A stretch of 56,483 bases of DNA from a virus (taxonomy: Duplodnaviria > Caudoviricetes), in the IMG/VR virus record IMGVR_UViG_3300031227_000050, positions 1-56,483 of that record. One strand, given 5' to 3'. How positions within the stretch are numbered: the stretch's first letter is position 1; every line of letters starts with the position of its first letter. The position numbers and the translations under genes are program-made. This document shows positions 9,579 through 43,710 of this stretch, in pieces. Below the pieces are notes generated by a model that was not told the DNA's origin, searched no databases, and saw nothing but the letters and a program-made list of their open reading frames with translations.

Positions 9579-9783
9579 GAATTCGTTCCTTTAGGTTAGT
9601 TAAAAATTGTTTGGTGGCTTCTTGACACTCAGTTAAGCTATCACCACATATAGTAAAAGGTATACTCTCATGATGTTTATCTTTTACCCTTGTGCCCACC
9701 TTACCATCTGGTTGTTTCTCACAAAGCTCATAATAAATTGTAACACAAATCACAGATTGATGAGGAATGTTTGGTTCACTCAT
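9556..9783 (-). CDS. hypothetical protein
   Basis: overlapping coupled ORF. Confidence 0.55.
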   Translation of the reverse strand: MSEPNIPHQSVICVTIYYELCEKQPDGKVGTRVKDKHHESIPFTICGDSLTECQEATKQFLTNLKERIHAKGKQT

Positions 9784-10165
9784 TATTTTTCCTTTTATCT
9801 ATACGAGATTGTTTTTCGCTGACTTGAATATGACCCTGACTATCCCTCTTAACCTGTTCCATGCCAGGACCAAGAGGTATTTCCAGTGGTTTGTTTTTAT
9901 ATGCATTGTTTTCACGATGGATACTTGCTTTTTCATCTGCGCTAAGCTTGTTTGCATTTTTATTAGCCATAGAACCTACAGTTTTAGGTGTAATATCAAC
10001 TACATTACAGTTTTCAGCTACATAATTTCTACGTACAGGTTTACGCTTTTTGCAGGAAGAACAGGTAGGTTTTAGTTGGGATACCTCATTCATTGAGGCT
10101 TTTATCTCGAATTGATGACCGCATCCATTATCGTCTGGGTCACATAGGAAAATATATGTGGGCAT
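9776..10165 (-). CDS. FmdB-family zinc-ribbon protein
   Basis: MPTY.F.C...CGHQFE...CSSC. Confidence 0.8.
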   Translation of the reverse strand: MPTYIFLCDPDDNGCGHQFEIKASMNEVSQLKPTCSSCKKRKPVRRNYVAENCNVVDITPKTVGSMANKNANKLSADEKASIHRENNAYKNKPLEIPLGPGMEQVKRDSQGHIQVSEKQSRIDKRKNNE

Positions 10166-10170
10166 TATAC

Positions 10171-10178
10171 TATACACC
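10171..10178 (-). promoter_or_regulatory. GGTGTATA phage promoter-like motif
   Basis: same motif upstream of genes at 15936-15943, 17109-17116 and 19621-19628; variants at 34117-34124 and 47507-47514. Confidence 0.5.
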
Positions 10179-10239
10179 ACTTTCTATGCCAAAAAGTAAT
10201 CCTTCGGCATCAAATAGGGAGTTTCTTGTAAATTTTCTA

Positions 10240-10443
10240 CTAAGTACTTTGTATAAATGGTTCATCTATACCGGTTACACAATGTGAATAATCACCACTA
10301 CGACGAATAGAATCTATGTTTAATGGATGTCGTTTTGTATCATTCATTTTCATAGGTTTAGCTATAACCTTGGTTTTATCTACCCCTAAGATAGTTAAAC
10401 AACCAAGGGCGGCTAGTTTGAAAAAGTTTCTACGTTCGTTCAT
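10240..10443 (-). CDS. small protein with twin-arginine (Tat) signal
   Basis: MNERRNFFKLAALGCLTILG. Confidence 0.6.
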   Translation of the reverse strand: MNERRNFFKLAALGCLTILGVDKTKVIAKPMKMNDTKRHPLNIDSIRRSGDYSHCVTGIDEPFIQST

Positions 10444-11111
10444 GATTTATTCCTATTAAGTAAGTGTTTGTAAATAGGTGTAAGATATGGCACCCATTCT
10501 TCTGGAATTTGCATCCAAGGAGATATGCCTAAAATAAACTGGGCGGGATTAAGTTCCTTAACAGGTCTAAGTAACTTCATGCCTGCTTGTTTGGGTGTTC
10601 TATCAGCCTTTTTACGGTTACACAAGATACAACATGTTACAATGTTGGTCCAGTTGGTTGGCGTTCCTTTATAGTGATTCCTTTTCCATACAGCCCTAGG
10701 AATAACATGGTCATAGGTTAACTCAGAGGTATGTTCTAGTTTACCACAGTATTGACAGGTTAACTGGTCCCTGATAAATACATTCTTGCGGGAAAATGGA
10801 ATTTTGTTGCGGTTTTGTCTGATATATTTTGGACATCTAACTACGGCGGGCATAGGATATTTCCTGGTACTACCCTGAATGAAGTCGTCCTTATAAAAAT
10901 CAATGACCTCTAATCCATTTGCAGGATTATCCTGATTCATCATTGACAAAACAATACCACGCTGCCAACCGATTAATCCTAATGGAGTATAATCAGCGTT
11001 TAAAACTAATGCCTTACGATGTTGAGGCTTTTTACTGTCACAGTGTTGCTCAACTGGTTTAGTCCGCTGCTTTGTCTCTATCTGCTTTTGCTTCCTCTTT
11101 TTCTTTGACAT
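10440..11111 (-). CDS. HNH endonuclease
   Basis: LVLNADY, FSRKNVFIRD..TCQYCG, TYDHVIPR, NIVTCCILCNRKK. Confidence 0.9.
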   Translation of the reverse strand: MSKKKRKQKQIETKQRTKPVEQHCDSKKPQHRKALVLNADYTPLGLIGWQRGIVLSMMNQDNPANGLEVIDFYKDDFIQGSTRKYPMPAVVRCPKYIRQNRNKIPFSRKNVFIRDQLTCQYCGKLEHTSELTYDHVIPRAVWKRNHYKGTPTNWTNIVTCCILCNRKKADRTPKQAGMKLLRPVKELNPAQFILGISPWMQIPEEWVPYLTPIYKHLLNRNKS

Positions 11112-11802
11112 TATAGTCCTCCACGGCTTTAACAATTACCTCAACAAGTGGGCTTCTAATAATATCCTCATTGGTTAGCTCTACAAGGCCAACCTCGCCC
11201 ACACCATTCAAAATACGCATATATTTTTCAAGTCCGCCCGAACGATGGGCTTCCAAATCTGTTTGTGATATATCACCAGTAAGTACCATGGTACTATTGT
11301 TACCTATTCTGGTTAGCAACATAGTAATTTGTTCAAATGTAGCATTCTGACATTCATCAGCTATAATAAAGCTGTTGTGTAAACTGCGCCCTCTCATGTA
11401 GGCAAATGGAAGTACCTCTATTTGATTACCATTTAACATTCTTTGAATATCAGCTAAGCTACAGTATACATTTAACTCATCATAGATAGGTCTCATGTAT
11501 GGGTCGGATTTTTGTTGTATATCACCAGGTAAAAAGCCTGTGTTTTCTCCTGCCTGAACAAATGGCCTAGTTATAATGATTCTGTCGCATTGTTTTTTAG
11601 CTAATCGTATAATAGCGGAGGCAACAGCAATGTGAGTTTTACCAGTACCGGCGGGTCCAACACAAAATGTTATACCATGTTGATTAATTGTTTTGATGTA
11701 ATGTTTTTGATTATTAGTTTTACCAGTAAGGTGGTATTTTTTCAATGTTAAATCATTACTGATTGGTTTACGCTTTGGCTTTAGTGGTCTAGGCGGCATC
11801 AT
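11059..11802 (-). CDS. phoH: PhoH-like ATPase
   Basis: GPAGTGKT, GFLPGD, AYMRGRSL, DECQN, GDISQTD. Confidence 0.95.
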   Translation of the reverse strand: MMPPRPLKPKRKPISNDLTLKKYHLTGKTNNQKHYIKTINQHGITFCVGPAGTGKTHIAVASAIIRLAKKQCDRIIITRPFVQAGENTGFLPGDIQQKSDPYMRPIYDELNVYCSLADIQRMLNGNQIEVLPFAYMRGRSLHNSFIIADECQNATFEQITMLLTRIGNNSTMVLTGDISQTDLEAHRSGGLEKYMRILNGVGEVGLVELTNEDIIRSPLVEVIVKAVEDYNVKEKEEAKADRDKAAD

Positions 11803-11811
11803 GGTGTTTCC

Positions 11812-14800
11812 TTATACTAAAATACAGGCCCCTCCAGCACAGGCAATTTCTTGCTCTGGCTGAGTTTCGTCTTGTTCTTCAATCATGGTTGTATAATCTA
11901 CAGGTTTAATACTATCTACTAGGTCGCAATATAACTTCCAATTGTATACATCTTTCATACAATATGTTAGTCTTTTTAGGTCACCATCAAAATACTTAAT
12001 GGCAAACTTGTTCATTTTCTCCACCATAGCACACTGTTTGGCAATTTTCATCCAAAAGGCAGAGTCTCCACCTCCATTAGTACTAATCTTAGTATTGAGC
12101 TTATCATATAGTGTAATATCACATGCTTTCCATAGGTTATCACAGGCATCTAACGCTATTTCTATCAAACCGGAGGTCCATAAGGCAGCATCTCCATATT
12201 CTCTTACAATCTCTCTTGCTGTATACACCGCAGTAAATGGAGCTTGGGCATAATCTTTGTCGCCACTCTGAGGCAATAAGGCAACACCACAAAAATACCG
12301 TTTGTTTTTGTAGATAAAATCAGCTACTTCGACCCATTCAGTTGGGGTAACAGTGATAGTATTTGATACATTATGACTGAGCCACGATTGTGTACATAGT
12401 TTTTTGTTTTTACCGGAATTAACCCAGTTACCCTGTGTGCTTTTAACAATGTCTAGTAATGCCAAGGCGGGCATTTGGTTCTTAGTTTTGGCACCATCAG
12501 GTACTTCAATAGGAAAGATGATAATATCATCAGTATCGTTAGCCGACCATACTGAACGAGTGCAGGCTTGTTGGTTGGTAGCTCTAAAATGTTGGTAAGG
12601 ATTCTCAGCTCTATTAGCTTGTAAAATACGTAAGTATCTTTTTGAATGGTGGGGGTGTAAGCTGGATGATGTACCTAATAGACACGATGATGTGCCCTCT
12701 GGTTTCATACAAGTAGTACGGGCAGCTTGATTAACTCCAATTATCTTAGCAAATGCTTTATTAGTATCAACTATGGTTTTAGCAACCGTACGTTGATTAG
12801 TAGGATTAAGTACTATGTCAAAATTTTCCATAGCTCCGGTCATAGATACGCCGAGTAGAGCTTCCCGCTGGAATATTGCTTGGGACCAGGATGTGAGGTA
12901 CTCAAGCCTGGTAAATCCTGCTTGGAGAGTACCGATAATAGCTGCCGCTCTACCTCTCTCATTAAAGTCTGCGATATCCTTGATAGTTGCGCAATTGATG
13001 GTCGAAAGGTTACATCCCTGCCATCCAGATTCAAGACCCATTTCGGTTGGTAGCGCTTTATATCCCATTCCATCATATGTCTCCATATACTTGTCATATT
13101 TCGCTTGGTCAACAATGTAATATGCCCACATGCCAATTTCAGCACATGGATTTATCAACATTTCTAAATCGTCGGTCCAAATGAAACCGGGCTCACCATG
13201 TTCTTTAACATGTTCTAATATAGCTAAGAATTCTTCCTTGGTTGTCTTGTTACGTAATAACATAACAGAATTATTTGAGCGTGCTCGCTGCCCATTTTCT
13301 TCTTTCCAGTTGCCCGTTTTGGCAGTCATCATCTCATGGTCGTCGGCCGAAAACAAACATATTGTGGATGAATTATGAACTAATATTCCATTACATAAAA
13401 AACAGCTTTCTTGTTCTACCTCGATATCATACGTGTCAATAGCATTATTTTGCTCAATGCTTAAAACACGAATAGGAACTATGTGTTGATTATGATAATA
13501 TTTATCGGCTACCCAACCAGTCATTCTTTTGTTATTTGTAGACCAAGAATGTCTCAGCCCTTTTGGATACGGCTTAGAAAACCATTTAGCCGGAAAACAA
13601 TTTGATGTTTTTTTATCGTGGGTTATTCTAGGTATTTTAGTTGCAAATCTATATTTAGATACAAACTCGATATACTGTTGTAGGTCTAGTTTGTTTAGAA
13701 TACTCACATGGTATTGGTCTTTCCAATTTGGTTTACCTTGATTACATTTCCATGTAGATACAGCTTTTAATTGTATCCTACTGATAATACCACAGCTTAA
13801 TAATAAAGATTGTAATTGTTTAGCAAAGTCTTCATAAATAGTACATGTTACACAGAAGGGTTTAACTTTTACCGAACCATCTGCATCTACTACACCTTGA
13901 ATATATGCCATTCTTATGTTTACAGAAGCCTTTTTAACAAAATCTGGTATATTAATAGGTGTATTAGGTTGTTTGATATGTGTATGAAAGTAGGTAGCTA
14001 ATTGCTTACTTTTTACTCTAACCCTATAATAATGGTCTTCGTGTGGTCTGTGTTGAACGGTTACATTTACACCAAATCTTGTCAATTGTTGGGCTACATC
14101 AACTGCTTGTTGTTTGTGTTCCTCAGCAACAGCTACAGACAAAGCCCCACTGTTATGGGTTAACTTAACATAGCCATCTCCATGAAATATTCCTAAAAAC
14201 CATGCCATTTTTTCATCTAATGGTGGTATAACAATATTTTTACATGTAGTTGAACGGGCTGGTTTTATATACTTAAAACTTGGTAGTCGTGTTGTGTTAT
14301 TGTGGTTATCAGCACGACGAATACTATATAGGTAATCGTCATCTGTTAAGTTTTTAGCATATTTCCAAGTAAATTGACCATCATAACTGTTTAACACAGC
14401 TACTCTATGATTTGGGGTACATTTTATAGTTCCATTTTGATGTTTTATTGTAACACAATTTTGTTTACCTTGACTAAAAGTGTTAATTACCCTTTTCCAT
14501 CCATTAGGTGTTGATACATAATCTCCAATGGTTACATCTTGTATATCTTTATATCCTTGTTCTTTGATTAAAACCTTTTCATCTTGTGCTATACATCTCC
14601 TAACACCACCACTTAAAACTGCATCGGATATATGCATAACAATATCATAGCAGTCTATAGGGCGTAATCTTTTTCTACCTTCTTGGTAACGACAACGTCT
14701 TAATAGAGCATCAATACGTATAATAGCACTTCTTAACCCGTTTGGCCCCGGCGCTTTGCCAACACCTGAACTTAGAAAAGAACCAGCAGGTCTAATTTGA

Positions 14801-15345
14801 GAATAATCAAAAACAACTTCGCCACATTTAGCATATTTTTCGTAAGCAGGGTCTATAACTACATCTAGGTGATTACTTAATAACACCCCAATGGTGTCAG
14901 CCCAACCCTCAATGGTATCGGGAACAACAAATGTTTCCTGATGAGAGAGAATTTCGCGCCTAAAACCAGGGAGTCTATCTACGTGTTGTTTTTGTACTGA
15001 AAATCCAGTCCCACAACCACATAATAATAACCAAAAACATTCTTGGAAAAATCGTGGTCTATCACAATAGGAACTCACACAATTATATATTCTAGCGTTC
15101 TTTTTTAGTGCTGGTGTGCCCCCAAATTGTAATGCTCTCTGTGACCCTAACACTTTCTTCTTGAGCATCATGTCGTATGCCCAGTTTATCTCTTCATCTA
15201 TACCTTTATCGTTGTAAAATTCCAACATCATATCGCGCACTCGATATACTGCTTCTTTCCAAGTCTCTCTGCGCTTCTCTTTGGCAATCCATCTGGCATA
15301 TTTAGATACAAGAGTATAATTCATTAATTCTGGTAAAGCTGACAC
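11812..15345 (-). CDS. nrdJ: class II (AdoCbl-dependent, monomeric RTPR-type) ribonucleotide reductase with intein
   Basis: RRETW, IYNC, GCGTGFSV, GGVRR|S, GEPG, NPCAEI, TCMKPEGT, C-terminal ACAGGAC. Confidence 0.93.
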   Translation of the reverse strand: MSALPELMNYTLVSKYARWIAKEKRRETWKEAVYRVRDMMLEFYNDKGIDEEINWAYDMMLKKKVLGSQRALQFGGTPALKKNARIYNCVSSYCDRPRFFQECFWLLLCGCGTGFSVQKQHVDRLPGFRREILSHQETFVVPDTIEGWADTIGVLLSNHLDVVIDPAYEKYAKCGEVVFDYSQIRPAGSFLSSGVGKAPGPNGLRSAIIRIDALLRRCRYQEGRKRLRPIDCYDIVMHISDAVLSGGVRRCIAQDEKVLIKEQGYKDIQDVTIGDYVSTPNGWKRVINTFSQGKQNCVTIKHQNGTIKCTPNHRVAVLNSYDGQFTWKYAKNLTDDDYLYSIRRADNHNNTTRLPSFKYIKPARSTTCKNIVIPPLDEKMAWFLGIFHGDGYVKLTHNSGALSVAVAEEHKQQAVDVAQQLTRFGVNVTVQHRPHEDHYYRVRVKSKQLATYFHTHIKQPNTPINIPDFVKKASVNIRMAYIQGVVDADGSVKVKPFCVTCTIYEDFAKQLQSLLLSCGIISRIQLKAVSTWKCNQGKPNWKDQYHVSILNKLDLQQYIEFVSKYRFATKIPRITHDKKTSNCFPAKWFSKPYPKGLRHSWSTNNKRMTGWVADKYYHNQHIVPIRVLSIEQNNAIDTYDIEVEQESCFLCNGILVHNSSTICLFSADDHEMMTAKTGNWKEENGQRARSNNSVMLLRNKTTKEEFLAILEHVKEHGEPGFIWTDDLEMLINPCAEIGMWAYYIVDQAKYDKYMETYDGMGYKALPTEMGLESGWQGCNLSTINCATIKDIADFNERGRAAAIIGTLQAGFTRLEYLTSWSQAIFQREALLGVSMTGAMENFDIVLNPTNQRTVAKTIVDTNKAFAKIIGVNQAARTTCMKPEGTSSCLLGTSSSLHPHHSKRYLRILQANRAENPYQHFRATNQQACTRSVWSANDTDDIIIFPIEVPDGAKTKNQMPALALLDIVKSTQGNWVNSGKNKKLCTQSWLSHNVSNTITVTPTEWVEVADFIYKNKRYFCGVALLPQSGDKDYAQAPFTAVYTAREIVREYGDAALWTSGLIEIALDACDNLWKACDITLYDKLNTKISTNGGGDSAFWMKIAKQCAMVEKMNKFAIKYFDGDLKRLTYCMKDVYNWKLYCDLVDSIKPVDYTTMIEEQDETQPEQEIACAGGACILV
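13372..14595 (-). mobile_element. 408-aa intein with LAGLIDADG homing endonuclease in nrdJ
   Basis: GGVRR|CIAQD...CTPNHR...FLGIFHGDG...YIQGVVDADG...TYDIEV..ILVHN|SS. Confidence 0.95.
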
Positions 15346-16506: not shown

Positions 16507-16588
16507 TGGGTGAGGGGGGATTCGAACCCCCACGCCTTTCGGCACGACATTCTAAGTGTCGCATGTATACCAGTTTCATCACACACCC
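16507..16588 (-). tRNA. tRNA-Leu(TAG)
   Basis: CGACA-CT-TAG-AA-TGTCG, long variable arm, GGTTCGAATCC. Confidence 0.93.
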
Positions 16589-17085
16589 TTATAATATTTC
16601 AACACCTCATCAATATTTAAAGTATGTTCTATCGCGTGACAATTACGGCACAACAACATACATTTTTGTATTTCCTGTTCTAGGATTTTCCATGACATTG
16701 CGTGCCAATGGGCAGCTAAATTAAAAGATTTATTAGATGAGTCAATATGATGAAATGTTAATGTCCTAATATCTTTATTCCCACAATGTATACATTGTCC
16801 TCCTAAGAACTCAATAGCACGTAACCTGTTTTTATATCTAGTATAACGATTCCTACATACTGAACAAACATCATTTTTAGTCCAAGAAAATTCTTTACTA
16901 CAGATAGGACATATTTTAGTAGTAATCCTATTATTTGTTGCTACTTCTCGACGTAGTTTGTATCCTGCTTTTGAATTGAAAGGTGAGCAGTCTAAACAAT
17001 AACTACGACTTTTTAATATTCTGATTTTTCCATCTATTTTCACACGATATGGAAAATTATTGTGACACTTTTTACACTTAGGCAT
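16579..17085 (-). CDS. tRNA-adjacent HNH homing endonuclease
   Basis: several CxxC, LGGQCIHCG, LTFHH, KCMLLCRNCHAIEH; stop codon lies inside the tRNA-Leu 5' end. Confidence 0.85.
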   Translation of the reverse strand: MPKCKKCHNNFPYRVKIDGKIRILKSRSYCLDCSPFNSKAGYKLRREVATNNRITTKICPICSKEFSWTKNDVCSVCRNRYTRYKNRLRAIEFLGGQCIHCGNKDIRTLTFHHIDSSNKSFNLAAHWHAMSWKILEQEIQKCMLLCRNCHAIEHTLNIDEVLKYYKGV

Positions 17086-17141
17086 AAATATACCCTCCTT
17101 TAGTATACTATACACCAATGTCTACTTAAACGCTACAAAAT

Positions 17142-28549: not shown

Positions 28550-29174
28550 CTGATTTACCTTTTCTAAATGAGGTTACTAGGTCAAAACCTTTTGCTTCAA
28601 TCATTACTTTATCTGGTACATGTGGAACAACTTCTCGTTGTCCACCCAATACACCAAAGAGATACATTTCAATTTCTTGGAATGTATGATACACATCAAA
28701 CAGTCTATAGAATTTAATATCAGCTAAGACAGGATTGATATATATATTGCGAAATGTACGAATAAAATATGGAGTATGGAATTCTGTAAAAATGTCCTTA
28801 CAAATTTTGTCATGTGTTACTATACTTTCAAATGATGCTTTAAGTCTTTTAAAACTTTGAGCCATACTATCTCGTCTATGTCGTTTACAATTTGTAGTAA
28901 TAGCTTCCCAAGCAAAATCAAGGTCATAGAAATAGCCATTCGGCTCATCGCCTCCGTCCAATCGGATTACTGGATAAGCATGTCCACAAAAACCAACTAC
29001 TATAATATCATATTGTCTTTTTGCCCAAGTAGATACATAGCGATTACTTCCATACCATAACATATAATTTACACGACGCTCAATAGTTTCTTTTTTTCGA
29101 TGCCAAAAATTAACATTGTCTGATGGGTCCATCATACAGTCGTAGTAGTCATGATATTTACTTACAATTCTCAT
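28527..29174 (-). CDS. hypothetical phage protein
   Basis: MRIVSKYHDYYD...FQEIEMYL...KGFDLVTSFRK. Confidence 0.7.
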   Translation of the reverse strand: MRIVSKYHDYYDCMMDPSDNVNFWHRKKETIERRVNYMLWYGSNRYVSTWAKRQYDIIVVGFCGHAYPVIRLDGGDEPNGYFYDLDFAWEAITTNCKRHRRDSMAQSFKRLKASFESIVTHDKICKDIFTEFHTPYFIRTFRNIYINPVLADIKFYRLFDVYHTFQEIEMYLFGVLGGQREVVPHVPDKVMIEAKGFDLVTSFRKGKSDGKKRRR

Positions 29175-29470
29175 TTCATTAATCCAATACCTATAATAGA
29201 TAATGCAACACCAATCCATTGTAAAATGGTAAAATTTTTACCTGCTCCCAGATATATCATACCACTATAAAATCCAATTAGAATCATCAAATCAAAGATG
29301 ATACCATCTCGCAATACATTTTTAGAATAGTAAGCTATCAGTGGCCATAAGCCAAATGCCTGTAATACAAATAGTAAACCAACGTATTTAATTTGTTGTG
29401 TGTCGTTACAAGCCTTACTTGCCCACGCATAAAAGAAATAGTAGATTATTGCTACTGGTATCCAATACAT
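29171..29470 (-). CDS. four-TM membrane protein
   Basis: hydrophobic, SMR/DMT-like size. Confidence 0.6.
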   Translation of the reverse strand: MYWIPVAIIYYFFYAWASKACNDTQQIKYVGLLFVLQAFGLWPLIAYYSKNVLRDGIIFDLMILIGFYSGMIYLGAGKNFTILQWIGVALSIIGIGLMK

Positions 29471-30114
29471 TACGGAATTGCCGGTTGCTCAATAGCTAGA
29501 CATACTTCGCCATTTTGTGCTATTAGTTTATCCATATCACTATTAGTAATATAAGCCCGTCCCTGTCTACCCCAATCTCTTCCCCAACTGTTCTTCATAC
29601 GAAAGCGCTTATACTTTGATGAATAGCCAGTAAGAAGGTATGCATGTCCACCATATACTTGACCACTTACTCTTAAATAACCTTTCTTATCTGGTACCAT
29701 CATACCTTCATACCAATTAGTTCCTACTACTACCGGCCCTTCTTCTAAAAGTGTAGCTGCTAAAGTATTAACATCCCAACACCAATTATAGGCGCGGATT
29801 AAACCAATACGTTGAAGGATTTTAGCACCAGCTCTAACACTAGTACCTTGTTCACCATCATCTTCCCACTCATCTACCATTGTAGCTAACGAATATAGCC
29901 CATCTGGATTTACGAAATTTAGTATAGGACTATTAATAAGCCAATGTGCCCACGCATAACCTACACAATGAGGTGTTTGACCTTGGTTACCCCACCATCT
30001 AGTGTCTCGCCAGTATCTCTCAGTTCTCTTAGATGTACCACGTCTTAGACGAAATTTTATATCTCTTTTATCTTCGGCAAATCTTCTACCGAACTTGAAT
30101 TTATCTGTGTTCAT
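29470..30114 (-). CDS. papain-family (C1) cysteine peptidase
   Basis: NQGQTPHCVG, GGHAY, KNSWGRDWG. Confidence 0.88.
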   Translation of the reverse strand: MNTDKFKFGRRFAEDKRDIKFRLRRGTSKRTERYWRDTRWWGNQGQTPHCVGYAWAHWLINSPILNFVNPDGLYSLATMVDEWEDDGEQGTSVRAGAKILQRIGLIRAYNWCWDVNTLAATLLEEGPVVVGTNWYEGMMVPDKKGYLRVSGQVYGGHAYLLTGYSSKYKRFRMKNSWGRDWGRQGRAYITNSDMDKLIAQNGEVCLAIEQPAIP

Positions 30115-31202
30115 TCGAATATCCTATTGTGAGTTCTGTTTACACGAACAAAGGAGGCACAGTCTCCTAAGTATCTTAAATCAGTTGCTCCAACATAGGC
30201 GCAACAACTGCGCAGTCCTCCTACGATTTCCTTTAGTATATCTGCAACTGGTCCTTTGTATGGCACTGATACTTTTTTACCTTCAGATGCAGTGTAATCC
30301 TTACGACCATTATGTTTGTCTTGGGCTGAGTAGGAAGACATACCATAGAAACTTAATGCCTTTTTGCCTCCCCGTCTTTCTTCTCTAATACTAATACCAA
30401 GCGTAGGATGTGTAGTACGTTCCCATTTGACATCATATTCCCATTCTCCATCACACTCGTCTGTCCCCGTCAGCATTCCGCCCACCATAACAAAGTCTGC
30501 GCCCGCCGCAAACGCTTTGCAAATATCTCCGGGGGTTCGACAGCCACCATCTGCACAGATTAAACCAAGGCGTCCCTCGTCGCTCTTGCGGCCATGTGCG
30601 GCGTCGGCACACTCCATGATTGCGGAAAGCTGAGGATAGCCCACACCGGCCACCAGTCTCGTAGTACACACACTCCCGCCACCAACTCCAATCTTAACTA
30701 TATCAGCACCATGGTCGATTAACCGTTCGACCATATTAGGGGTACATACATTGCCGGCTATAATAGTAAGCTCTTTACCATGTTTTTCGCGCATCTTAGA
30801 TACCAACTCAAGAAACTGATTTGTGTATCCATTAGCAACATCTAAACACACATATTTTGGAGGCATGTTATGGTTCATGGCATCCATACCGAAGCTTTCT
30901 ATATTATATCCGTCTTGTTGGTCTGTTAATGATTGTCCCATTTTATCAAGCACAGAATAATGTTTGTGTAATACGCAACCCATTTGATGGTCGCGCATCA
31001 CCTTGGCCATAGCAAACGTACCAGTAGTATCCATATTAGCCGCCAAGATAGGGACACCTTTCCATACATTAGACGAATGATAAAACTTAAACTCTCTAAC
31101 AAGGTTTACTGCTTTCCTACTAGCATTGATGCTACTCTTTGGTACAATAAGAACATCATCGAAGTCTAGTTTGACCCCATCTAAGATTTGTGCTTGTCCC
31201 AT
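30111..31202 (-). CDS. guaC: GMP reductase
   Basis: LDFDDVLI, AANMDT, LDVANGY, KIGVGGGSVCTTR, FYGMSS, ASEGK. Confidence 0.93.
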   Translation of the reverse strand: MGQAQILDGVKLDFDDVLIVPKSSINASRKAVNLVREFKFYHSSNVWKGVPILAANMDTTGTFAMAKVMRDHQMGCVLHKHYSVLDKMGQSLTDQQDGYNIESFGMDAMNHNMPPKYVCLDVANGYTNQFLELVSKMREKHGKELTIIAGNVCTPNMVERLIDHGADIVKIGVGGGSVCTTRLVAGVGYPQLSAIMECADAAHGRKSDEGRLGLICADGGCRTPGDICKAFAAGADFVMVGGMLTGTDECDGEWEYDVKWERTTHPTLGISIREERRGGKKALSFYGMSSYSAQDKHNGRKDYTASEGKKVSVPYKGPVADILKEIVGGLRSCCAYVGATDLRYLGDCASFVRVNRTHNRIFE

Positions 31203-32398
31203 TACTTGCCGTCCGTCCCGCCCTTTCGGGCCAAATAATCTGCGCTTACACTCTTCAAGATAACCCGTCCCAATATAGGAACAGTACGGTCTATAACTGG
31301 TTTGATTACTACTCCTTCGCGCCCTTTAAACTTACTCTTGGGATTTTCACATACCTCAGTAAGCCCATCGGTAAGCTCCCTAACTATCTCAGGAGAGTAG
31401 GTACCTATATATAGCTCTGGTACATGAGGAATACTATATTGATGACAAAGTTCTCTTACGTTTTGCCACATGATAAACTTACCACCAATGGTGATGTCAA
31501 ATACAGAAAAAGCTTTTGGCCCATCGTACTGCATATCCTGAATATCTTCTCCGTAAATCTCCCCATAGATAACTATAGGCTTCTGGTATAAGGTAAATAA
31601 GTCAGCCAACATCTTTTTGACTGGTGGATACTTCATGGGTGACCAATACAGACACTCATTACCATTAGTATCCTCTTGCTTACGGCGAGTATTATGAGAG
31701 CCCGCCATGAAAGTTGGTACCATCTCTCCATTCTCATCTGCATCTAGAGCAATGCCCAATCTACAGTTTGTATTGTGTACTATTATTCCTGACGCTACAA
31801 AATTATGGGTATCTTTAATTTGTAGGTCATATCTTTTATAAGACTGAACTAATTTTTTCTTCTTAATAAGTTTCATTTTTGTAACTTCTTTTTGTAAAAG
31901 GTCTTTAATATATCCTCTATAAATAGGTTTTAAATTATGTTGTTCAATTACTTCTTTGGTTAAATTTAAATGAACCCGTTGACCTACCTTTTGCTTGTTT
32001 TGCAATGTCAGATAACCTAATTTTCTATCTTTAACTATATGTAAAAGAATATAATCAGGCTCGGTTATTATATGCATTTCATATATTGGTTCTAGAACAT
32101 CAAAATTATATCTTGCAAATATCAATGGTTGTTTTGGATAATGAGGATAATTTGGACTAATAGTAGAACTATCTTTATCTATCATAGTGGTACTTTTAAC
32201 CTCAGCTTTCAATATTTTATTTGCTATAGATATATATACATCTCCTCCTTTACCATCTTTTTTTCTATGTCCATTAAATGCTAAAGCCACCAAACCTTCT
32301 GATATTTTTTCTGGCAAATTTGGTTTACGCTCATTTATATCAAAACATTTTCTATATGCTATATAAGCATTACACATTTCTCGTATTAATATAGGCAT
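31202..32398 (-). CDS. fusion: Bsp6I-like restriction endonuclease (aa 1-174) + C-intein (35 aa) + RNA ligase C-terminal half (189 aa)
   Basis: RKPNLPEKISE...GD...AEVKST; MKLIKK..RYDLQIKDTHNFVASGIIVHN|T; IYGEIYG, FSVFDI, REGVVIKP, RVILKSVSADYL. Confidence 0.88.
   Translation of the reverse strand: MPILIREMCNAYIAYRKCFDINERKPNLPEKISEGLVALAFNGHRKKDGKGGDVYISIANKILKAEVKSTTMIDKDSSTISPNYPHYPKQPLIFARYNFDVLEPIYEMHIITEPDYILLHIVKDRKLGYLTLQNKQKVGQRVHLNLTKEVIEQHNLKPIYRGYIKDLLQKEVTKMKLIKKKKLVQSYKRYDLQIKDTHNFVASGIIVHNTNCRLGIALDADENGEMVPTFMAGSHNTRRKQEDTNGNECLYWSPMKYPPVKKMLADLFTLYQKPIVIYGEIYGEDIQDMQYDGPKAFSVFDITIGGKFIMWQNVRELCHQYSIPHVPELYIGTYSPEIVRELTDGLTEVCENPKSKFKGREGVVIKPVIDRTVPILGRVILKSVSADYLARKGGTDGK
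31772..31876 (-). mobile_element. split intein C-half (IntC)
   Basis: block F/G YDLQI..THNF..SGIIVHN followed by Thr nucleophile; own Met at 31876. Confidence 0.9.
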
Positions 32399-33321
32399 TT
32401 AAGTATTCTATTGACTAATACTGGACATACAGAATTACCTGCTTGTTTATAAATTTGTCCATTGGCTACTGAATATTTGAATGTGCTTGGAAACCCCTGT
32501 AATAGTAAACATTCTTGTGGGGTTAATTTTCGTATCCCAAACCTATCCTTAATTAGAGGTACATTATGTCCACCAGTACCCATATTAGCAGTTAATGTAG
32601 GACATAAACCATTTTGATTTCTTCGTACATAAATTCTTCTAAGTTGATAAATGGCATCGTCAATAACATTGTCTTTTAACATATCATAGTACTGCGAATC
32701 AGTTTTATAATAATATCTACTTTCTTGTTTTATGTTTCTTTGTAGTATACTAGATATTTTAGAGGTTAATACTATTGGTAGCGGGAATTGAAACGTTGTT
32801 GTTTTACCATGAATACCAACAAAAAACATACGCTTTCTACATTGTGGAATATTAGTATGTGTATCTAAATCTACGACATCAGTAAAAACAGAATATCCTA
32901 CTTGTTCTAAGGCTGATATAATATTAGTATAGTCCTGACCTCCATTAGTATTCTTAATATTGGCAACATTTTCAAAAATGAAATATTTGGGTTGATGATA
33001 TTTTAAAATTTCAATCAAATAATTAATTAGAATACCTCTACTATCCTTAGACCCCAATTTATTACCAGCTAAGCTAAATGATTGACATGGAAACCCGCCA
33101 GTTAATAAATTGTGTGCTGGCAATGCTCTTATATTTACCTTGGTTATGTCACCAAACATTGGTATATCTAGAAAATTTTCTTGGTAAGTTTGACAAGCAT
33201 ATTTATCATATTCTATAGCACCAACACATTTAAAATCCATATCAAGTTCACCACATGCTTGTTTAACACCAAGATGAAATCCACCAATTCCAGCAAACGC
33301 ATCTAACAATTTAATTTTCAT
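32386..33321 (-). CDS. C5-cytosine DNA methyltransferase, M.Bsp6I-like (predicted GCNGC)
   Basis: FAGIGG, GGFPCQ, ENV, QCRKR, RKLTPQEC, YKQAGNSV; TRD IYQLRRIYVR...CPTLTANMGTGGHNVP resembles M.Bsp6I as recalled. Confidence 0.9.
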   Translation of the reverse strand: MKIKLLDAFAGIGGFHLGVKQACGELDMDFKCVGAIEYDKYACQTYQENFLDIPMFGDITKVNIRALPAHNLLTGGFPCQSFSLAGNKLGSKDSRGILINYLIEILKYHQPKYFIFENVANIKNTNGGQDYTNIISALEQVGYSVFTDVVDLDTHTNIPQCRKRMFFVGIHGKTTTFQFPLPIVLTSKISSILQRNIKQESRYYYKTDSQYYDMLKDNVIDDAIYQLRRIYVRRNQNGLCPTLTANMGTGGHNVPLIKDRFGIRKLTPQECLLLQGFPSTFKYSVANGQIYKQAGNSVCPVLVNRILKCLY

Positions 33322-34076
33322 TTTCTATCTCCATCAGTCCACTTAATTTTAGTTACATCATATTCTTTATTTGATTTATGTTGCTTAGCAACTAAGTTAC
33401 ACCAAAAAATCAGCTCATCATTATCTAATACCGATTTAATTCTATTAAGTCTTTTATGAATAATTTGTATATTACCTTCCTTATAGCCCTCACTATTATC
33501 TATCCTATCTAATGAAGCCGTTTGTATACTTTTATCTTGATTTCTACAAAAAAATACATCAACACCAGATAAAGCACATTTTTTATTTTGCCTTAACCAC
33601 AACTCATAAACATCTTTGGCTATTATATCAAACTGTAAACCTCTTTCTTCTGCGTGATATTTTAGTCTACGAAACCATGAACCTGATACATCTTCATATC
33701 CCTTAAAGTTTACAATAGAACAATAGCCACAAGATTTTGTTAAACCACGCTTTAGTGATGAGGCATTAATCATTTTAGTTCTACCGCACGCACATTTACA
33801 ACTCCACCTACGCTTGCCATGAGCATCTGGGCTAACCACATGTTTAACTGTAAGTTTTCCAAACGTTCGATTAGATAGGTCATCATCAGGATTATTAACC
33901 AATCTAGCTTTATACCTAGCATCTTTCACATCTTCATATATATCATATTTTTTACAATATTTTATGATAGTTTGCTTGCTATACTTAACCTCTTCAGATA
34001 ACTTAGCCAAAGACTTAAGATTTGCTATTAATTCTTGAACTAACAACTCTTCTGTTAATACATCTTTACATTTCAT
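33318..34076 (-). CDS. free-standing HNH/His-Me homing endonuclease
   Basis: FGKLTV...WSCKCACG...KSCG; KCALSG...ASLDRIDNSEGYKEGNIQ...NRIK. Confidence 0.85.
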   Translation of the reverse strand: MKCKDVLTEELLVQELIANLKSLAKLSEEVKYSKQTIIKYCKKYDIYEDVKDARYKARLVNNPDDDLSNRTFGKLTVKHVVSPDAHGKRRWSCKCACGRTKMINASSLKRGLTKSCGYCSIVNFKGYEDVSGSWFRRLKYHAEERGLQFDIIAKDVYELWLRQNKKCALSGVDVFFCRNQDKSIQTASLDRIDNSEGYKEGNIQIIHKRLNRIKSVLDNDELIFWCNLVAKQHKSNKEYDVTKIKWTDGDRK

Positions 34077-34115
34077 GAGAACATCCTTTGTGTAAAATAC
34101 TGAAAACTCAGTATA

Positions 34116-34415
34116 TTATACACTAGATTCTCCCAAAACGATATGATTTTCTGTTAAATCTCGGGCTTTTATCCAGCCATCGGTAGTCAATACCGGATGG
34201 TCTTCGGTACAAACCAATGTCTGCCCATTATCAAACTCAAGTTCAAACCAATCTAATTGGTCGGTTTCATCCTGAACTAACACTCCCTCAACATCTGAGT
34301 GTGTAAATAACCCCTTGTCTACATCATATGTTTTAACTTTTTCTCCAACCACAATATCTTTGATGGGTTTTTGTGTACCATCAGACATAGTTACTAAAGA
34401 GTCTTCACGAAGACA
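34116..34415 (-). mobile_element. split intein N-half (IntN)
   Basis: CLREDSLVTMSDG..KPIKDI.VGEKV...LVCTEDHPVLT..GWIKARDL, then stop. Confidence 0.92.
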
Positions 34416-34946
34416 CCCATGAATCTTCTCAGTTATTACTACTTCTTCATCCTCTAACCACACATCAGGATAATTACCCCAATGTTCTATAGAAGTATAC
34501 TTAGGAAACTGAGGATTGTCTTTCATCACATCACCCTGGGTAGACTTAACGGGTGGTTCCCATTTGGTGATACCTAATGCATCTATTACATCAGCACTAT
34601 CTATTTTAGTATTACCATTATTCGAAGTATATTCTAAGAACGATTTCATCGTCATTATTGTTCCATATGATACTTCACCTCTCAGCCTAGCTGCTTTTAC
34701 TCTCCGAGCATTTGTGTTAAATGACTTAGGTAACTCTGCACAATACTTAGTAATGTTCAGGTACTCATGTAATAGTGCAGGAAGAATAGCATCTGGTGGG
34801 ATGAACACAACTAAGTCTCCGGGACTCAATAGGTCTTTCTGTACTATAACAGACCATCCTTTGACCGTAGCTATTTCTAGCCGGTCTGCATTGGGGTGGG
34901 GCTGAATATCCTTAACGGATGTTATTTCAACGATTAGCTTTGACAT
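34116..34946 (-). CDS. RNA ligase (DRB0094 family) N-terminal half (177 aa) + N-intein (99 aa)
   Basis: PHPNADRLEIA, GDLVVFIPPDA, RLRGEVSYG, LGITKWEPP, FPKYT, ITEKIHG|CL. Confidence 0.92.
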   Translation of the reverse strand: MSKLIVEITSVKDIQPHPNADRLEIATVKGWSVIVQKDLLSPGDLVVFIPPDAILPALLHEYLNITKYCAELPKSFNTNARRVKAARLRGEVSYGTIMTMKSFLEYTSNNGNTKIDSADVIDALGITKWEPPVKSTQGDVMKDNPQFPKYTSIEHWGNYPDVWLEDEEVVITEKIHGCLREDSLVTMSDGTQKPIKDIVVGEKVKTYDVDKGLFTHSDVEGVLVQDETDQLDWFELEFDNGQTLVCTEDHPVLTTDGWIKARDLTENHIVLGESSV

Positions 34947-34964
34947 TGTGTTCCTCGTATTCTG

Positions 34965-35735
34965 TTATAAGTATTGCATCCAACCTTTTAAATCTTTATC
35001 TTCTTTGACCGGTTTGCCCTTTTCGAAGACTATCTTATTATCTAACACTGCTTTGACCTTTGTTCTATCGAAGGTAATGTTTGGTAAGATTCCCTCTAAG
35101 GCGTCTACTATTTCATCAGTATCAAAATGTGGCTTATAATCTATGACTAAATCTATATCATGGCGGGCTTCATCGAGGGCATCCATTGATGCTGACCACA
35201 TTCTTAATAAGTCTGGTAGTGTTATGGTTGCCCATTCCTGTTTCATGTATGAGCGCGCACATTCTCCAAAATTTCTAGCACAGTAAATGATTTTAGAACT
35301 GGGCAACAACCATTTAAGAAACTGTATATCTTCTGGTGTATTAAACAGAGATTTACATCCTACATATTTGGTTTTGAAAATGTCTCGATTTAAATTTTCT
35401 GCTCGTTGGGGAGATAACAATATTTGACTTATATATACGCCATATGCTTTAGTGTAAGCATCTCTTGCTTCTCCAAGGTTGGCTTGCCAACACGAGTTAT
35501 TTATTCTAAATTCTGCATCTTGTTTTGTGGCTGCCTCCCTACGACCATTTTGTGATGCAATAGTTACTCTTCCAAGCTTAATTATATTATTGTCTTCTCC
35601 GTATATCAAAATTTCTGGGTGTGAGTTAAGCACTCGTTGCATTAATGTACTACCACACCTATATATAGGCCCACATACAAAGACAACCTTTGGTGCATAA
35701 GGTATTTGTTCTTCAGTCGTAGTATTGTCGCACAT
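34965..35735 (-). CDS. sulfotransferase-family protein
   Basis: FVCGPIYRCGSTLMQRVLNSHPEI; KIIYCARN...RSY. Confidence 0.8.
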   Translation of the reverse strand: MCDNTTTEEQIPYAPKVVFVCGPIYRCGSTLMQRVLNSHPEILIYGEDNNIIKLGRVTIASQNGRREAATKQDAEFRINNSCWQANLGEARDAYTKAYGVYISQILLSPQRAENLNRDIFKTKYVGCKSLFNTPEDIQFLKWLLPSSKIIYCARNFGECARSYMKQEWATITLPDLLRMWSASMDALDEARHDIDLVIDYKPHFDTDEIVDALEGILPNITFDRTKVKAVLDNKIVFEKGKPVKEDKDLKGWMQYL

Positions 35736-36075
35736 TTCTTACATATTCCTTTAAAAGTGCAGCAATAGATTGACCATTTATCCAAAGTGCGCCAATCAAT
35801 CTATTAAAACTATTGATATCAGTTAATTTTATACTACTTTTACCTGCCGGAATCCACAGTGTTGCATTACAACCCTGGAGTATACCGATTAGATACTCTT
35901 TGACTTTTCGCCCAAGCTTAGTGTTAAGCTCAGGCATATTAAATTGATTATCTAGGTCATCAGGGTCAATAAATCTTACCGGAAAGCGTCGTGTGATTTC
36001 CACCACAGCAGTGTCTCCATCAATAACTCGAATCACCTTTACTTTTGTAATAAAACCTTCTGGTGGTACTACCAT
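35713..36075 (-). CDS. thermonuclease (SNase-like)
   Basis: VIRVIDGDT, MPEL, FNRLIG. Confidence 0.75.
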   Translation of the reverse strand: MVVPPEGFITKVKVIRVIDGDTAVVEITRRFPVRFIDPDDLDNQFNMPELNTKLGRKVKEYLIGILQGCNATLWIPAGKSSIKLTDINSFNRLIGALWINGQSIAALLKEYVRNVRQYYD

Positions 36076-36272
36076 GGGTTTGTCCTCTGTAGGCGGATAA
36101 TTCTAATACCAAAGACATACATATCAGTATAACCTATTAATGAATCATTTGGGTCTTCATAATATTTGACATTTCTAGTAGCAAAAGGTATCATACAGTA
36201 GGTTAGTTTAAACATACTATACATAGATTTTAACATAATCATTAATCTTTCTCCCATGGAAATACTATCCAT
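36069..36272 (-). CDS. hypothetical protein
   Basis: coupled ORF. Confidence 0.45.
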   Translation of the reverse strand: MDSISMGERLMIMLKSMYSMFKLTYCMIPFATRNVKYYEDPNDSLIGYTDMYVFGIRIIRLQRTNPW

Positions 36273-36682
36273 TTGTTTGGTTTAAGTGCGGCAAAATAAG
36301 CAGGACGGGGTAAAGTCCCCAATTTATAATATAACGAGGCTGTTGTAGCTGGGCCGAAATGATTGTAAAATAGACGTAGGGTGATTCCATCATCTACTAC
36401 ATCATCTACGACAAGGGGATTCTTCCAATCACAGATGCGGTAAGTTCCATGGTGGATGTTCACCCTGCCATGATATCTAGAAATGGTGACGTGACGAACA
36501 GGAATTTGTAAGCGGCGTGCAATACGTTTGCCTATTTGTCGTCCACCTCTAGCGATGTAAACAACAACGTCGAACGGGTCTTGTAGGTGAGCCCATTCAA
36601 CATGTTTGGTGAGTTTACGTATTAACTTGATACATTCTCTACCACCCAAATAACATTCTTCGACTTGACTTACTGTTCCCAT
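36242..36682 (-). CDS. phosphoribosyltransferase
   Basis: IARGG, LVVDDVVDDGITL, WIVFPWE. Confidence 0.88.
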   Translation of the reverse strand: MGTVSQVEECYLGGRECIKLIRKLTKHVEWAHLQDPFDVVVYIARGGRQIGKRIARRLQIPVRHVTISRYHGRVNIHHGTYRICDWKNPLVVDDVVDDGITLRLFYNHFGPATTASLYYKLGTLPRPAYFAALKPNKWIVFPWEKD

Positions 36683-36897
36683 GGGGGTTTATCTCCTTCT
36701 TTCCACCAGGTATCGTCGCCATCATTTTCTTTTTGTCTCTGTATCGTACAGTCTACTAACCAATGAATAAATTTATCAAAATTAACCACCATAACTACAT
36801 CTTTAGTTGTTACACCATGAAGTGTTACTGCTTCGGTATGGTCTCCTGTAAGTAATTTAACATCACTTGGTAATTTGGGTAGTTTGGGTAGTGCCAT
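36670..36897 (-). CDS. hypothetical protein
   Basis: ORF with AAGGA RBS. Confidence 0.55.
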   Translation of the reverse strand: MALPKLPKLPSDVKLLTGDHTEAVTLHGVTTKDVVMVVNFDKFIHWLVDCTIQRQKENDGDDTWWKEGDKPPWEQ

Positions 36898-36914
36898 AAC
36901 ATCCTTTCCAATAG

Positions 36915-36937
36915 AAAAAGCCCGCCGAAGCGAGCTT
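36915..36937 (-). terminator. intrinsic terminator closing the tRNA operon
   Basis: AAGCTCGC-TTCG-GCGGGCTTTTT. Confidence 0.8.
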
Positions 36938-36950
36938 GTAGTGTTGTAAG

Positions 36951-37022
36951 AGCCCTATGAAGGAATCGAGCCTTCTTTCATACCTTACCAAGGTATTGTA
37001 ATAACCATTATACGAATAGGGC
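36951..37022 (-). tRNA. tRNA-Thr(GGT)
   Basis: ATACC-TT-GGT-AA-GGTAT; T-loop CTCGATT. Confidence 0.85.
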
Positions 37023-42660: not shown

Positions 42661-43710
42661 TTAACCCTCCGGTTTGAGTAACTTCCATATCATCTTGGCA
42701 TAGTCATGCTCATCCATCATAGCAAACACAATATGTCTATAACGATAGTCTTTAATAAGATTGGCTACATACTTACGAGTCCAACTTGGGTCTATAGTAA
42801 CCTCATTGAGTTTATTCCACACTTCGGTCTCGATAACACGATATTTCTTTCTAAGTCCACTCTGAACACTAAGTATCCATTCAAAGTATTCATCGGGTAC
42901 ATTCTTAGGGTCTATTTCATAACTGTCACGCTCCCACTCCCAGAGTTTCTTTTCAGTTATGCTAGTCATAATATAATGAAGCCGCTTGTATTCCTCATAC
43001 TTGAACTTCAATCGGAAACCGTCCTCAAAGATAAGAACATAACCCTCGGCGTTGTCTCTATCGGGAGCCGCCTCTAATTCCTCAATAGTATTAATGTGAT
43101 ACAGCTTAGCAAACTTCATATATTTATTCATCAAAGACCACTCATCCCAATCATCTAAACCAGTATCATTATTCAGAACAGCTAAAAGAATTAATGCACG
43201 CTCATTTTTATAATTTACCACAATTCTATTTTCTGGGTAAATTATTTCAACCATATAGGTACAATCTATTGCAAAGGTTAACCAGTTATATTTTTCTTGC
43301 AATATTTTATTGGCTTCAATAGCCTGGTCTGATTCAAATGAACCCCTAGTGGCAATTTCCCACTTAGTTAGCAAAGGATTGTAGAAAAGTATCCCCAACG
43401 AACCATCTATCTTTTCCATGGTGATGAAGCGTTCATTAAAAATGTCTTTGAACTTACGACCATACAGGTGATGAACCTTATTTCTTATGGAAGTTAGTTG
43501 GTCAATAGTGAAGAACTTCTTAAGTGGTCTTGCTATGATGTTCCACTCGGCATCAACTATGAGCCCACGACACACAATAGTAGCTTCGTTCCACTCAAAA
43601 TCAAACTGGGTTTGTGGAGTGTAGTTTAATATCCACAAGTCACAGGTTGGATGCTTGCGGCGAGAAACATAACCTTTCTCAATCATCTTTTTAATTAATG
43701 GAATGTTCAT
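42661..43710 (-). CDS. T4 Rnl1-like RNA ligase
   Basis: ILNYT, CRGLI, RPLKKFF, EKIDGSLG, ATRGSF, EIIYPENRIVV, EGYV, RLKFKYEEY. Confidence 0.92.
   Translation of the reverse strand: MNIPLIKKMIEKGYVSRRKHPTCDLWILNYTPQTQFDFEWNEATIVCRGLIVDAEWNIIARPLKKFFTIDQLTSIRNKVHHLYGRKFKDIFNERFITMEKIDGSLGILFYNPLLTKWEIATRGSFESDQAIEANKILQEKYNWLTFAIDCTYMVEIIYPENRIVVNYKNERALILLAVLNNDTGLDDWDEWSLMNKYMKFAKLYHINTIEELEAAPDRDNAEGYVLIFEDGFRLKFKYEEYKRLHYIMTSITEKKLWEWERDSYEIDPKNVPDEYFEWILSVQSGLRKKYRVIETEVWNKLNEVTIDPSWTRKYVANLIKDYRYRHIVFAMMDEHDYAKMIWKLLKPEG

Follow-up and report, generated by a model that had tools for sequence, protein, structure and literature searches.

How could a phage RNA ligase whose gene is broken in two still be made, and what do a DNA methyltransferase and a restriction endonuclease-like domain do inside the break? 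These questions are raised by a locus at positions 31202-34946 (minus strand) of the IMG/VR virus record IMGVR_UViG_3300031227_000050, a linear stretch of 56,483 bases (CheckV completeness ~39%) that was analysed at its full length and is called the window hereafter. In the reading that we prefer, to which we give a probability of roughly 70%, this is a fractured DraRnl/DRB0094-type RNA ligase (an adenylyltransferase preceded by an OB fold), interrupted after motif I by a class-1 split intein, the gap of which holds an endonuclease-like gene, a C5 methyltransferase and a restriction domain as cargo, the whole spreading by homing. A preliminary description of this DNA, made from its letters and open reading frames (ORFs), had given the coordinates of the locus and the sizes of its ligase, intein and nuclease parts, and they agree with our reading of the minus strand, on which all features of the locus lie.

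The first ORF of the locus (276 aa, 34116-34946) opens with the 177-aa N-extein (ExtN, residues 1-177, 34416..34946), which contains an OB fold (PF21189 PHA02142 OB-fold, E 6.1e-16) and adenylation motif I and ends in VVITEKIHG, the motif I lysine (KxHG) being present in EKIHG. The 189-aa C-extein (ExtC, 31202..31771, TNCRLG...TDGK followed by the stop codon) matches PF09414 RNA_ligase (E 3.9e-17). In the ligase model TIGR02306 (RNA_lig_DRB0094) the N-half covers positions 5-171 of 341 (E 1.2e-37, 129.6 bits) and the C-half positions 199-341 of 341 (E 1.3e-12, 47.3 bits), each alone staying under the cut-off of 151.15 bits, as expected because they are halves. Two ORFs on the same strand and in the same order thus make up one conserved ligase, as in a fractured gene. 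A second RNA ligase of another type is encoded at 42661-43710 (minus strand; phrog_562, 'RNA ligase and tail fiber protein attachment catalyst', 1.6e-59).

The point of insertion can be read from relatives that lack the intein. The uninterrupted 388-aa ligase of one relative (L011) reads ...TEKIHGTNCRVG, and in the alignment its residues 1-188 are 57% identical to ExtN 1-177 and its residues 189-383 are 43% identical to ExtC (residues 210-397 of the 398-aa ORF described below); as it aligns across both exteins, nothing was lost or doubled at the break. A more distant phage (L005 and L012) has an uninterrupted ...EKIHGTNFR. With intein-less relatives reading EKIHG-TNCR or EKIHGTNFR, the predicted spliced junction IHG-TNCR is the natural sequence, and the claim of the preliminary description that the ligase is broken right after EKIHG, with this very junction predicted after splicing, agrees to the letter with the L011 homologue.

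Both halves of the intein are recognisable. The N-terminal half (IntN, 99 aa, residues 178-276 of the first ORF, 34119..34415, CLREDS...TEDHPV...GESSV, with its TAA stop at 34116-34118) matches intein_Nterm TIGR01445 (E 3.3e-07) as well as Hint and Intein_splicing models, and resembles the DnaE intein 7qil in the PDB; the C-terminal half (IntC, 35 aa, 31772..31876, MKLIKKKK...THNFVASGIIVHN) matches intein_Cterm TIGR01443 (E 5.3e-07) and intein C-termini in the PDB; the lengths of 99 and 35 aa proposed earlier hold. All residues of a class-1 intein are present, i.e., Cys1 (CLRED...), CTEDHP, THNF...VHN (THNFVASGIIVHN) and a Thr at position +1, and we take these motifs to be the intein blocks B and F/G. 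IntN is acidic (net charge -14) and IntC basic (+6), a pattern described for several natural split inteins in the main text of Dassa et al. 2009 (PMC2677866). With the ligase halves made separately, the oppositely charged intein halves would dock and splice in trans, yielding a 366-aa ligase with the junction EKIHG-TNCR. If they do so, the pair (99 + 35 aa, +1 Thr) would be a new naturally split intein and a candidate tool for protein engineering.

The closest counterpart of the insertion is a cis-intein of mycobacteriophages (Bobby, Beem, Dallas and others), which resides in a host protein of the same RNA ligase family and at the identical point, directly 3' of motif I (K, L or I, H, G, followed by C at the start of the intein, and VHN followed by S or T at its end). 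Unlike the ligase of the window, however, the mycobacteriophage ligase is one continuous, unsplit protein of 800 aa without restriction-modification (R-M) genes, as in gp147 of Mycobacterium phage Bobby (MK524516.1; L006 2429-4831; QKLHG/C...VHN/SS, slashes marking the ends of the intein), and its intein has an internal domain with an LLGDGSL-type motif that looks LAGLIDADG-like, by eye only. This intein-bearing 800-aa RNA ligase (L006 2429-4831, L007) goes by different names in two phages, being annotated 'RNA ligase' in the one and 'HNH endonuclease' in the other. The empty and cis-intein alleles that the preliminary description had proposed to look for in relatives are therefore both represented, the former in L011, L005 and L012 and the latter in the mycobacteriophages.

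The layout as a whole resembles the fractured genes described in the main text of Dassa et al. 2009 (PMC2677866; gp41-1, NrdJ-1, IMPDH-1, NrdA-2 and others), in which a single endonuclease gene stands in the gap, the spacers measure 27-51 nt, hairpins lie 5' of the endonuclease gene and endonuclease ORFs overlap IntC. The window shares with these loci an enzyme gene broken into two same-strand ORFs with IntN at the end of one and IntC at the start of the other half, a short spacer after IntN (39 nt here), a free-standing endonuclease-like gene within the gap whose start is covered by a 5' hairpin, and the combination of an acidic IntN with a basic IntC; the overlap of the upstream ORF with the start of IntC recurs as well, with 14 nt, in a second locus that is described below. 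It differs from them in that the one endonuclease gene of the published loci is of the GIY-YIG or Vsr-like type, whereas the endonuclease-like ORF of the window belongs to another family that has no Pfam model, and in that a methyltransferase and a restriction domain follow the endonuclease gene, the latter fused to IntC in the same reading frame. The main text of PMC2677866 does not contain the term 'RNA ligase' (0 occurrences). The same text summarises the nrdA gene of phage Aeh1, which is split by an HNH-type endonuclease gene; there too, one operon holds an essential-type gene in two halves with the endonuclease gene between them, and a hairpin with a promoter element hides the ribosome-binding site and restrains endonuclease translation, to which the hairpin of the window can be likened. 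Unlike the window, the Aeh1 case, as summarised there, has neither an intein nor extra cargo, and the window shows no enrichment of the late-promoter word TATAAATA, the conserved word here being GTGTATAATAT.

The gap itself measures ~2.35 kb, is AT-rich and contains three translationally linked reading frames, of which the first two overlap by 4 nt (ATGA) and the second and third by 13 nt, as the preliminary description had indicated. It had also called the insert AT-rich, which the G+C of the parts confirms: ExtN 0.394, IntN 0.387, spacer 0.286, endonuclease-like ORF 0.311, methyltransferase 0.308, nuclease part 0.274, IntC 0.257 and ExtC 0.425, so that the AT-rich block begins at the IntN stop and takes in everything up to and including IntC (0.26-0.31, vs. 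0.39-0.43 in the exteins).

The first cargo gene is a free-standing ORF of 252 aa (33318..34076), a candidate homing endonuclease. It matches the PHROG families phrog_3322 ('endonuclease', 1.7e-19), phrog_374 ('HNH endonuclease', 2.3e-15) and phrog_1035 ('endonuclease VII', 6.1e-15) as well as 237 phage records, whose annotations read hypothetical, endonuclease or HNH endonuclease; it had no match in Pfam, NCBIfam or the PDB, and its Atlas clusters contain only viruses and carry no assigned family. Distant relatives of this ORF were found among viral contigs at the break points of apparently split DnaE genes (L014, L015), which fits a gene-splitting homing enzyme. We therefore name it endonuclease-like and consider that, on these family relations, it probably is a homing enzyme, one that could carry the whole unit of intein and cargo into empty ligase alleles such as that of L011. 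As for the split DnaE genes themselves, the polymerase gene looks split at L014 2214-7119 and L015 2037-5334, with no intein signature seen (by eye only, no profile search), and the gaps, judged by eye and from ORF termini, contain the relative of the 252-aa ORF, a DnaQ-like exonuclease ORF and a small ORF; these would be another case of a gene gap with extra cargo.

A spacer of 39 nt (34077-34115) separates the IntN stop from the endonuclease-like ORF, and a hairpin (34068..34135) is predicted to form in the transcript of this spacer together with the final codons of IntN and the start of the endonuclease-like gene. Its minimum free energy is -20 kcal/mol (z -3.87; 0/200 shuffles as stable), and within it the ribosome-binding GGA and the A of the start codon AUG of the endonuclease gene are paired, by which it would hide the start region of this gene; Dassa et al. 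(main text of PMC2677866) report such hairpins 5' of the endonuclease genes in fractured loci. In the second locus (L010, see below) a hairpin at the same place reaches -21.2 kcal/mol (z -3.63; again 0/200 shuffles as stable) with different inner-stem sequences, and the 11-mer GTGTATAATAT in the 5' arm is invariant in the alignment of the two sequences. The IntN stop TAA sits within AGTGTATAA, where the preliminary description had seen a promoter-like element. A scan of the window for sigma-70-type promoters showed no excess (17 found vs. 19.4 expected), the late-promoter word TATAAATA occurs 7 times (10 expected), the word TATAATATA 6 times (3.1 expected, a count equalled by 6/100 shuffles) and a 15-mer with ≤ 3 mismatches 14 times (6.2 expected, reached by 1/100 shuffles). 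As these scans gave no clear excess, only the hairpin and the conserved 11-mer are claimed here, and of the promoter proposal what stands is the conservation of GTGTATAATAT in the spacer of the relative.

The second cargo gene encodes a C5 cytosine DNA methyltransferase of 311 aa (32386..33321), as had been called earlier: it matches PF00145 over model positions 2-320 of 324 (E 5.6e-71, 240 bits vs. a cut-off of 22) and TIGR00675 (E 1.6e-74). It is 39% identical (E 5e-70) to a methyltransferase that adjoins, in convergent orientation, a Bsp6I-family nuclease in a Moraxella genome (L008), both containing the stretch CPTLTANMGTGGHNVPL. The Moraxella link gives indirect support for a cognate specificity of the methyltransferase and the nuclease of the window; closer methyltransferases (46-59% identity) exist in the database.

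The third reading frame is an ORF of 398 aa (31202-32398), composed of a nuclease-like part of 174 aa (31877..32398), IntC and the C-extein. A phmmer search of the nuclease-like part against 1.84 billion representatives gave six matches at E ≤ 0.001, namely one near-identical copy, three free-standing proteins (P0006, P0007 and P0008; 173-225 aa, E 1.6e-5 to 5.9e-4) and two long proteins, which were set aside as only short stretches (37-39 query residues) were matched. P0008 is over the cut-off of Pfam RE_Bsp6I (PF09504; 8.8e-13), another of the three is just below it and P0006 has no match. A profile of four sequences then recovered 34 proteins, 34/34 with PF09504 and several named Bsp6I-family endonucleases by NCBI, which is not independent evidence because the profile itself contained family members. 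The independent test was made with hhalign, in which the window domain aligned with 29 other sequences (the profile-recovered rows carrying precomputed PF09504, and P0006, without such a match, being included) over 147 columns, with a probability of 98.5% and an E-value of 1.5e-15. The catalytic and family residues E34, D53, E66-x-K68, D76, P82 and R141 are kept, and with them the family motifs ISE, GD, ExK and SP. The alignment reaches approximately residue 166, where the free-standing relatives end, and the domain is therefore complete. A longer IntC, suggested by the Pfam Intein_splicing model (aligned residues 138-209 of the 398-aa ORF), was rejected on the same ground, since the sequence up to residue ~166 matches free-standing Bsp6I-family proteins at their C-terminal end and the reach of the model to 138 is an over-extension.

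Structure prediction points in the same direction. An AlphaFold 2 model made with the alignment has a predicted local distance difference test score (pLDDT) of 82 and a predicted template modelling score (pTM) of 0.80 for the nuclease domain (the single-sequence model, with a pLDDT of 36, was useless). Foldseek gave no row at E ≤ 0.001 against the PDB, and the top rows of VIA-align were NhoI (Z 8.6), Eco15I (7.8) and PvuII (7.8), the best 12 rows all being type II restriction endonucleases at middling Z. These structural matches agree with the BisI-family paper (PMC11347163), which in its text names PvuII as the nearest canonical relative of that family. By its sequence relations, the 174-aa domain is a divergent Bsp6I-family PD-(D/E)XK enzyme. 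The earlier comparison with Bsp6I thus holds in that hhalign makes the domain a distant family member with D...ExK kept, and fails in that the Pfam model RE_Bsp6I does not match it directly; the idea that the domain might be unrelated to restriction endonucleases is not supported by the hhalign result. As in Bsp6I-family type IIP R-M systems (PF09504), a small (~170-aa) PD-(D/E)XK nuclease stands beside a C5 methyltransferase; whereas the Moraxella pair is convergent, the genes of the window are co-directional and overlap, and, unlike in the Bsp6I systems, the nuclease has no stop codon of its own and sits inside the gap of a phage intein. No relatives of the nuclease were found in viral_contigs, and searches of NCBIfam (run on the whole 398-aa ORF), of the PDB by sequence and of the word-indexed homologue collection returned nothing for the 174-aa part.

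The fusion changes one point of the preliminary description, which had counted the restriction endonuclease as a separate gene. Nuclease domain, IntC and C-extein form a single uninterrupted frame, in which IntC is read in the nuclease frame and both other frames stop at the IntC junction; as there is no stop after the nuclease domain, every molecule of the restriction domain would be made as a 398-aa nuclease-IntC-ExtC fusion. Splicing of this fusion would set free the ligase and leave a 209-aa nuclease-IntC product that stays with IntN. Shine-Dalgarno-like cores precede the N-half, the endonuclease-like gene and the methyltransferase, and IntC-ExtC may also start at M175, in addition to being made within the fusion. 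In the cassette as we picture it, the methyltransferase would most likely protect the phage DNA and the nuclease would most likely cut unmethylated DNA of the host or of competitors.

A second locus with the same order of parts was found on a metagenome contig of 3.6 kb (L010). Its N-half is 62% identical to that of the window, with 107/176 identical residues in ExtN and 25/69 in ExtC, and the intein halves are more conserved than the exteins (IntN 70/94 aligned residues, IntC 23/35, the latter followed by TNCRVG). The endonuclease-like ORF in the same position is 53% identical to that of the window. The C5 methyltransferase, on the other hand, is only 24% identical, and the ORF that follows it (209 aa) has no similarity to the nuclease of the window and contains SPD...LEIK, a PD...ExK motif. 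It had no match by sequence in Pfam, NCBIfam or the PDB; the Atlas structure leads (leads only) were a 'putative restriction endonuclease' cluster and a ScaI-family cluster, and it is 30% identical (E 9e-21) to the product of a gene that is convergent with a C5 methyltransferase gene on a 5.9-kb plasmid. Whereas in the window the nuclease domain precedes IntC in frame, in L010 IntC opens its own ORF, with AAGGA before its ATG, and the end of the nuclease-like ORF overlaps the first 14 nt of IntC in a different frame. As far as sequence can tell, the methyltransferase/nuclease pairs of these two related phages are therefore unrelated to each other although they occupy the same slot, flanked by the same endonuclease gene and IntC. 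The earlier idea that the split intein forms a cargo bay gains support from this comparison, in which the intein and the endonuclease gene are kept and the methyltransferase and the PD..ExK ORF differ. In the reading that we prefer, this slot would be a place where R-M cassettes are exchanged, with the endonuclease gene on one side and IntC on the other.

One could go further and see in the intein gap a portable exchange site for R-M systems, a proposal that we put forward as tentative and rather doubtful. The intein and the endonuclease gene would be the vehicle and the R-M pairs, swapped for one another, the passengers. In the window, the restriction enzyme would have become part of the intein, occupying the topological position of a homing-endonuclease domain and being released only by trans-splicing. 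As a nonsense mutation or a frameshift in the nuclease would also destroy the C-half of the ligase, the cassette would be locked in by the host gene, and in mixed infections it would bias inheritance by cutting the unmethylated genomes of rivals.

Several observations weigh against the reading of the locus as a split-intein unit with an R-M cargo that spreads by homing. With respect to the endonuclease, the HNH label of the preliminary description is upheld by PHROG families only, the Pfam models PF01844, PF13392 and PF02945 (HNH, HNH_3 and Endonuclease_7) being silent at 33318-34076, and PF01844 matches two other ORFs of the window. With respect to homing, no intein-less or cargo-less allele (joint) of the same population was seen in the contigs of four runs, although contigs cannot show absence. 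The second locus is known from a single contig, the end of which cuts its C-extein. GCNGC, which we take to be the recognition site of Bsp6I, is over-represented in the window instead of being avoided (104 sites vs. 69.8 +/- 8.1 expected; 0/100 shuffles reach 104), a figure that says nothing either way on specificity; between 31044 and 34689 there are no such sites, which is uninformative, as by a rough estimate ~1 would be expected in a cargo of 30% G+C. The remaining points concern the nuclease: PF09504 did not match the 174-aa part at E-values up to 10, either by hmmscan or when the record was searched in six frames; all 29 relatives share the RPR motif, for which the window alone (n = 30 aligned) has RVH; TISP stands where nearly all relatives have SF[SG]P, and there is an insertion of 5 residues; and a Shine-Dalgarno-like core is absent at the nuclease start and at the IntC ATG, as compared with 38/63 ORF starts of the window that have one. 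Owing to RVH, TISP and the insertion, the nuclease could be inactive or differ in specificity.

It is from these last points that the main rival draws, which we hold to be unlikely: the methyltransferase would be an orphan, useful by itself as protection from host restriction, and the Bsp6I-like domain would be dead, kept open only as a translated leader for IntC-ExtC. The altered motifs and the missing Pfam recognition would fit a dead enzyme, and since IntC has neither a preceding stop nor a ribosome-binding site, synthesis of the C-half may indeed rely on ribosomes coming from the nuclease ATG; orphan methyltransferases are, moreover, reported in the text of PMC7468147 as the commonest flexible phage genes. 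A dead domain would, however, hardly be expected to keep E34, D53, E66-x-K68 and D76 all together, to give a confident model (pLDDT 82) with a restriction-enzyme fold, or to keep 174 codons open in an AT-rich segment, an outcome seen in 0/20,000 shuffles (approximate; plus-strand composition used). The independent pairing of a methyltransferase with a PD..ExK ORF in L010 likewise argues that the slot is occupied by pairs and not by lone methyltransferases.

We regard as improbable that the locus is decaying, i.e., that the insertion inactivated the ligase, the intein halves have lost the ability to splice and the gap merely tolerates selfish DNA. The second RNA ligase of the window (phrog_562, 42661-43710) might make the split one dispensable, but all catalytic residues of the intein and both exteins are intact, the arrangement is retained in a lineage that is only 61% identical in ExtN, and the intein halves exceed the exteins in conservation there (IntN and IntC vs. 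ExtN, counts as above). In addition, the frame is kept in 5/5 sampled variants of the 398-aa ORF (three full-length members, one called from M8 and one 267-aa piece that spans the junction), which differ at two residues only. A chimera, in which unrelated AT-rich R-M DNA was joined to a phage ligase and for which the sharp composition shifts at the IntN stop and the IntC/ExtC border might speak, can be dismissed, as every junction is bridged with 0 differing letters by contigs of runs not flagged as a possible source, the proteins occur on several contigs from multiple sources and the same architecture is found in the diverged L010.

The assembly check that the preliminary description had called for thus ruled out misassembly, and the split-intein reading does not rest on a faulty contig. 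The contigs of 4/4 runs compared bridge the junctions, at 31806-33824 and 33856-35300 in X3, 31627-31929 in X13, 31536-31959 in X15, and 31846-32146 and 34028-34178 in X11. JGI, ENA, Logan and MetaClust together hold 2 to 6 contigs for each of the four proteins of the locus, one of these contigs having 141,429 bases, and near-identical DNA to the window is present in 19 salt-lake metagenome runs, among which no RNA run was listed; a megablast of 29000-37000 against phages gave zero matches. In run X3, a second low-depth contig of 112 nt (window 31496-31607) has 10 differences in the C-extein, and a related strain or phage therefore coexists there.

Fractured genes have so far been described with one selfish passenger, the homing endonuclease gene, and the gap of the window holds a methyltransferase/nuclease pair as well. 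Our literature search, which took in the main text of PMC2677866 (the supplements of which might list extra ORFs in some fractured loci), found no report of R-M genes in a split-intein gap or of a fusion between an intein half and a restriction domain, in line with the earlier statement that an R-M cargo in a split intein is not known to have been described. Inteins or homing genes joined with an R-M system in one transferable phage unit would provide a concrete mechanism for the movement of R-M genes between phage genomes, and a natural fusion of a restriction domain to an intein half bears on how such toxic enzymes can be controlled.

Nearly all genes of the window lie on the minus strand, among them a helicase, a DNA ligase, a ribonucleotide reductase and the second RNA ligase. 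The 1177-aa ribonucleotide reductase ORF (11812-15345, minus strand) has a continuous intein, with Intein_splicing pieces at 13372-13551 and 14323-14511, and just downstream of it a free-standing ORF (10440-11135, minus strand) has a Pfam HNH match of 40.9 bits. A second ORF of the window that matches Pfam HNH lies at 16579-17118 (minus strand; 18.3 bits, or 24.7 with its neighbours). In the distant phage L005, a terminase-like ORF of 1039 aa (8572-11691) seems to bear an intein with a LAGLIDADG-like stretch (by eye). Finally, an IMPDH/GuaC-like gene at L016 1913-4202 looks fractured by eye as well, with a 237-aa N-part, a 317-aa ORF and then an ORF with an IntC-like start, ...DDHSYCVDGNIVVHN followed by SVC.

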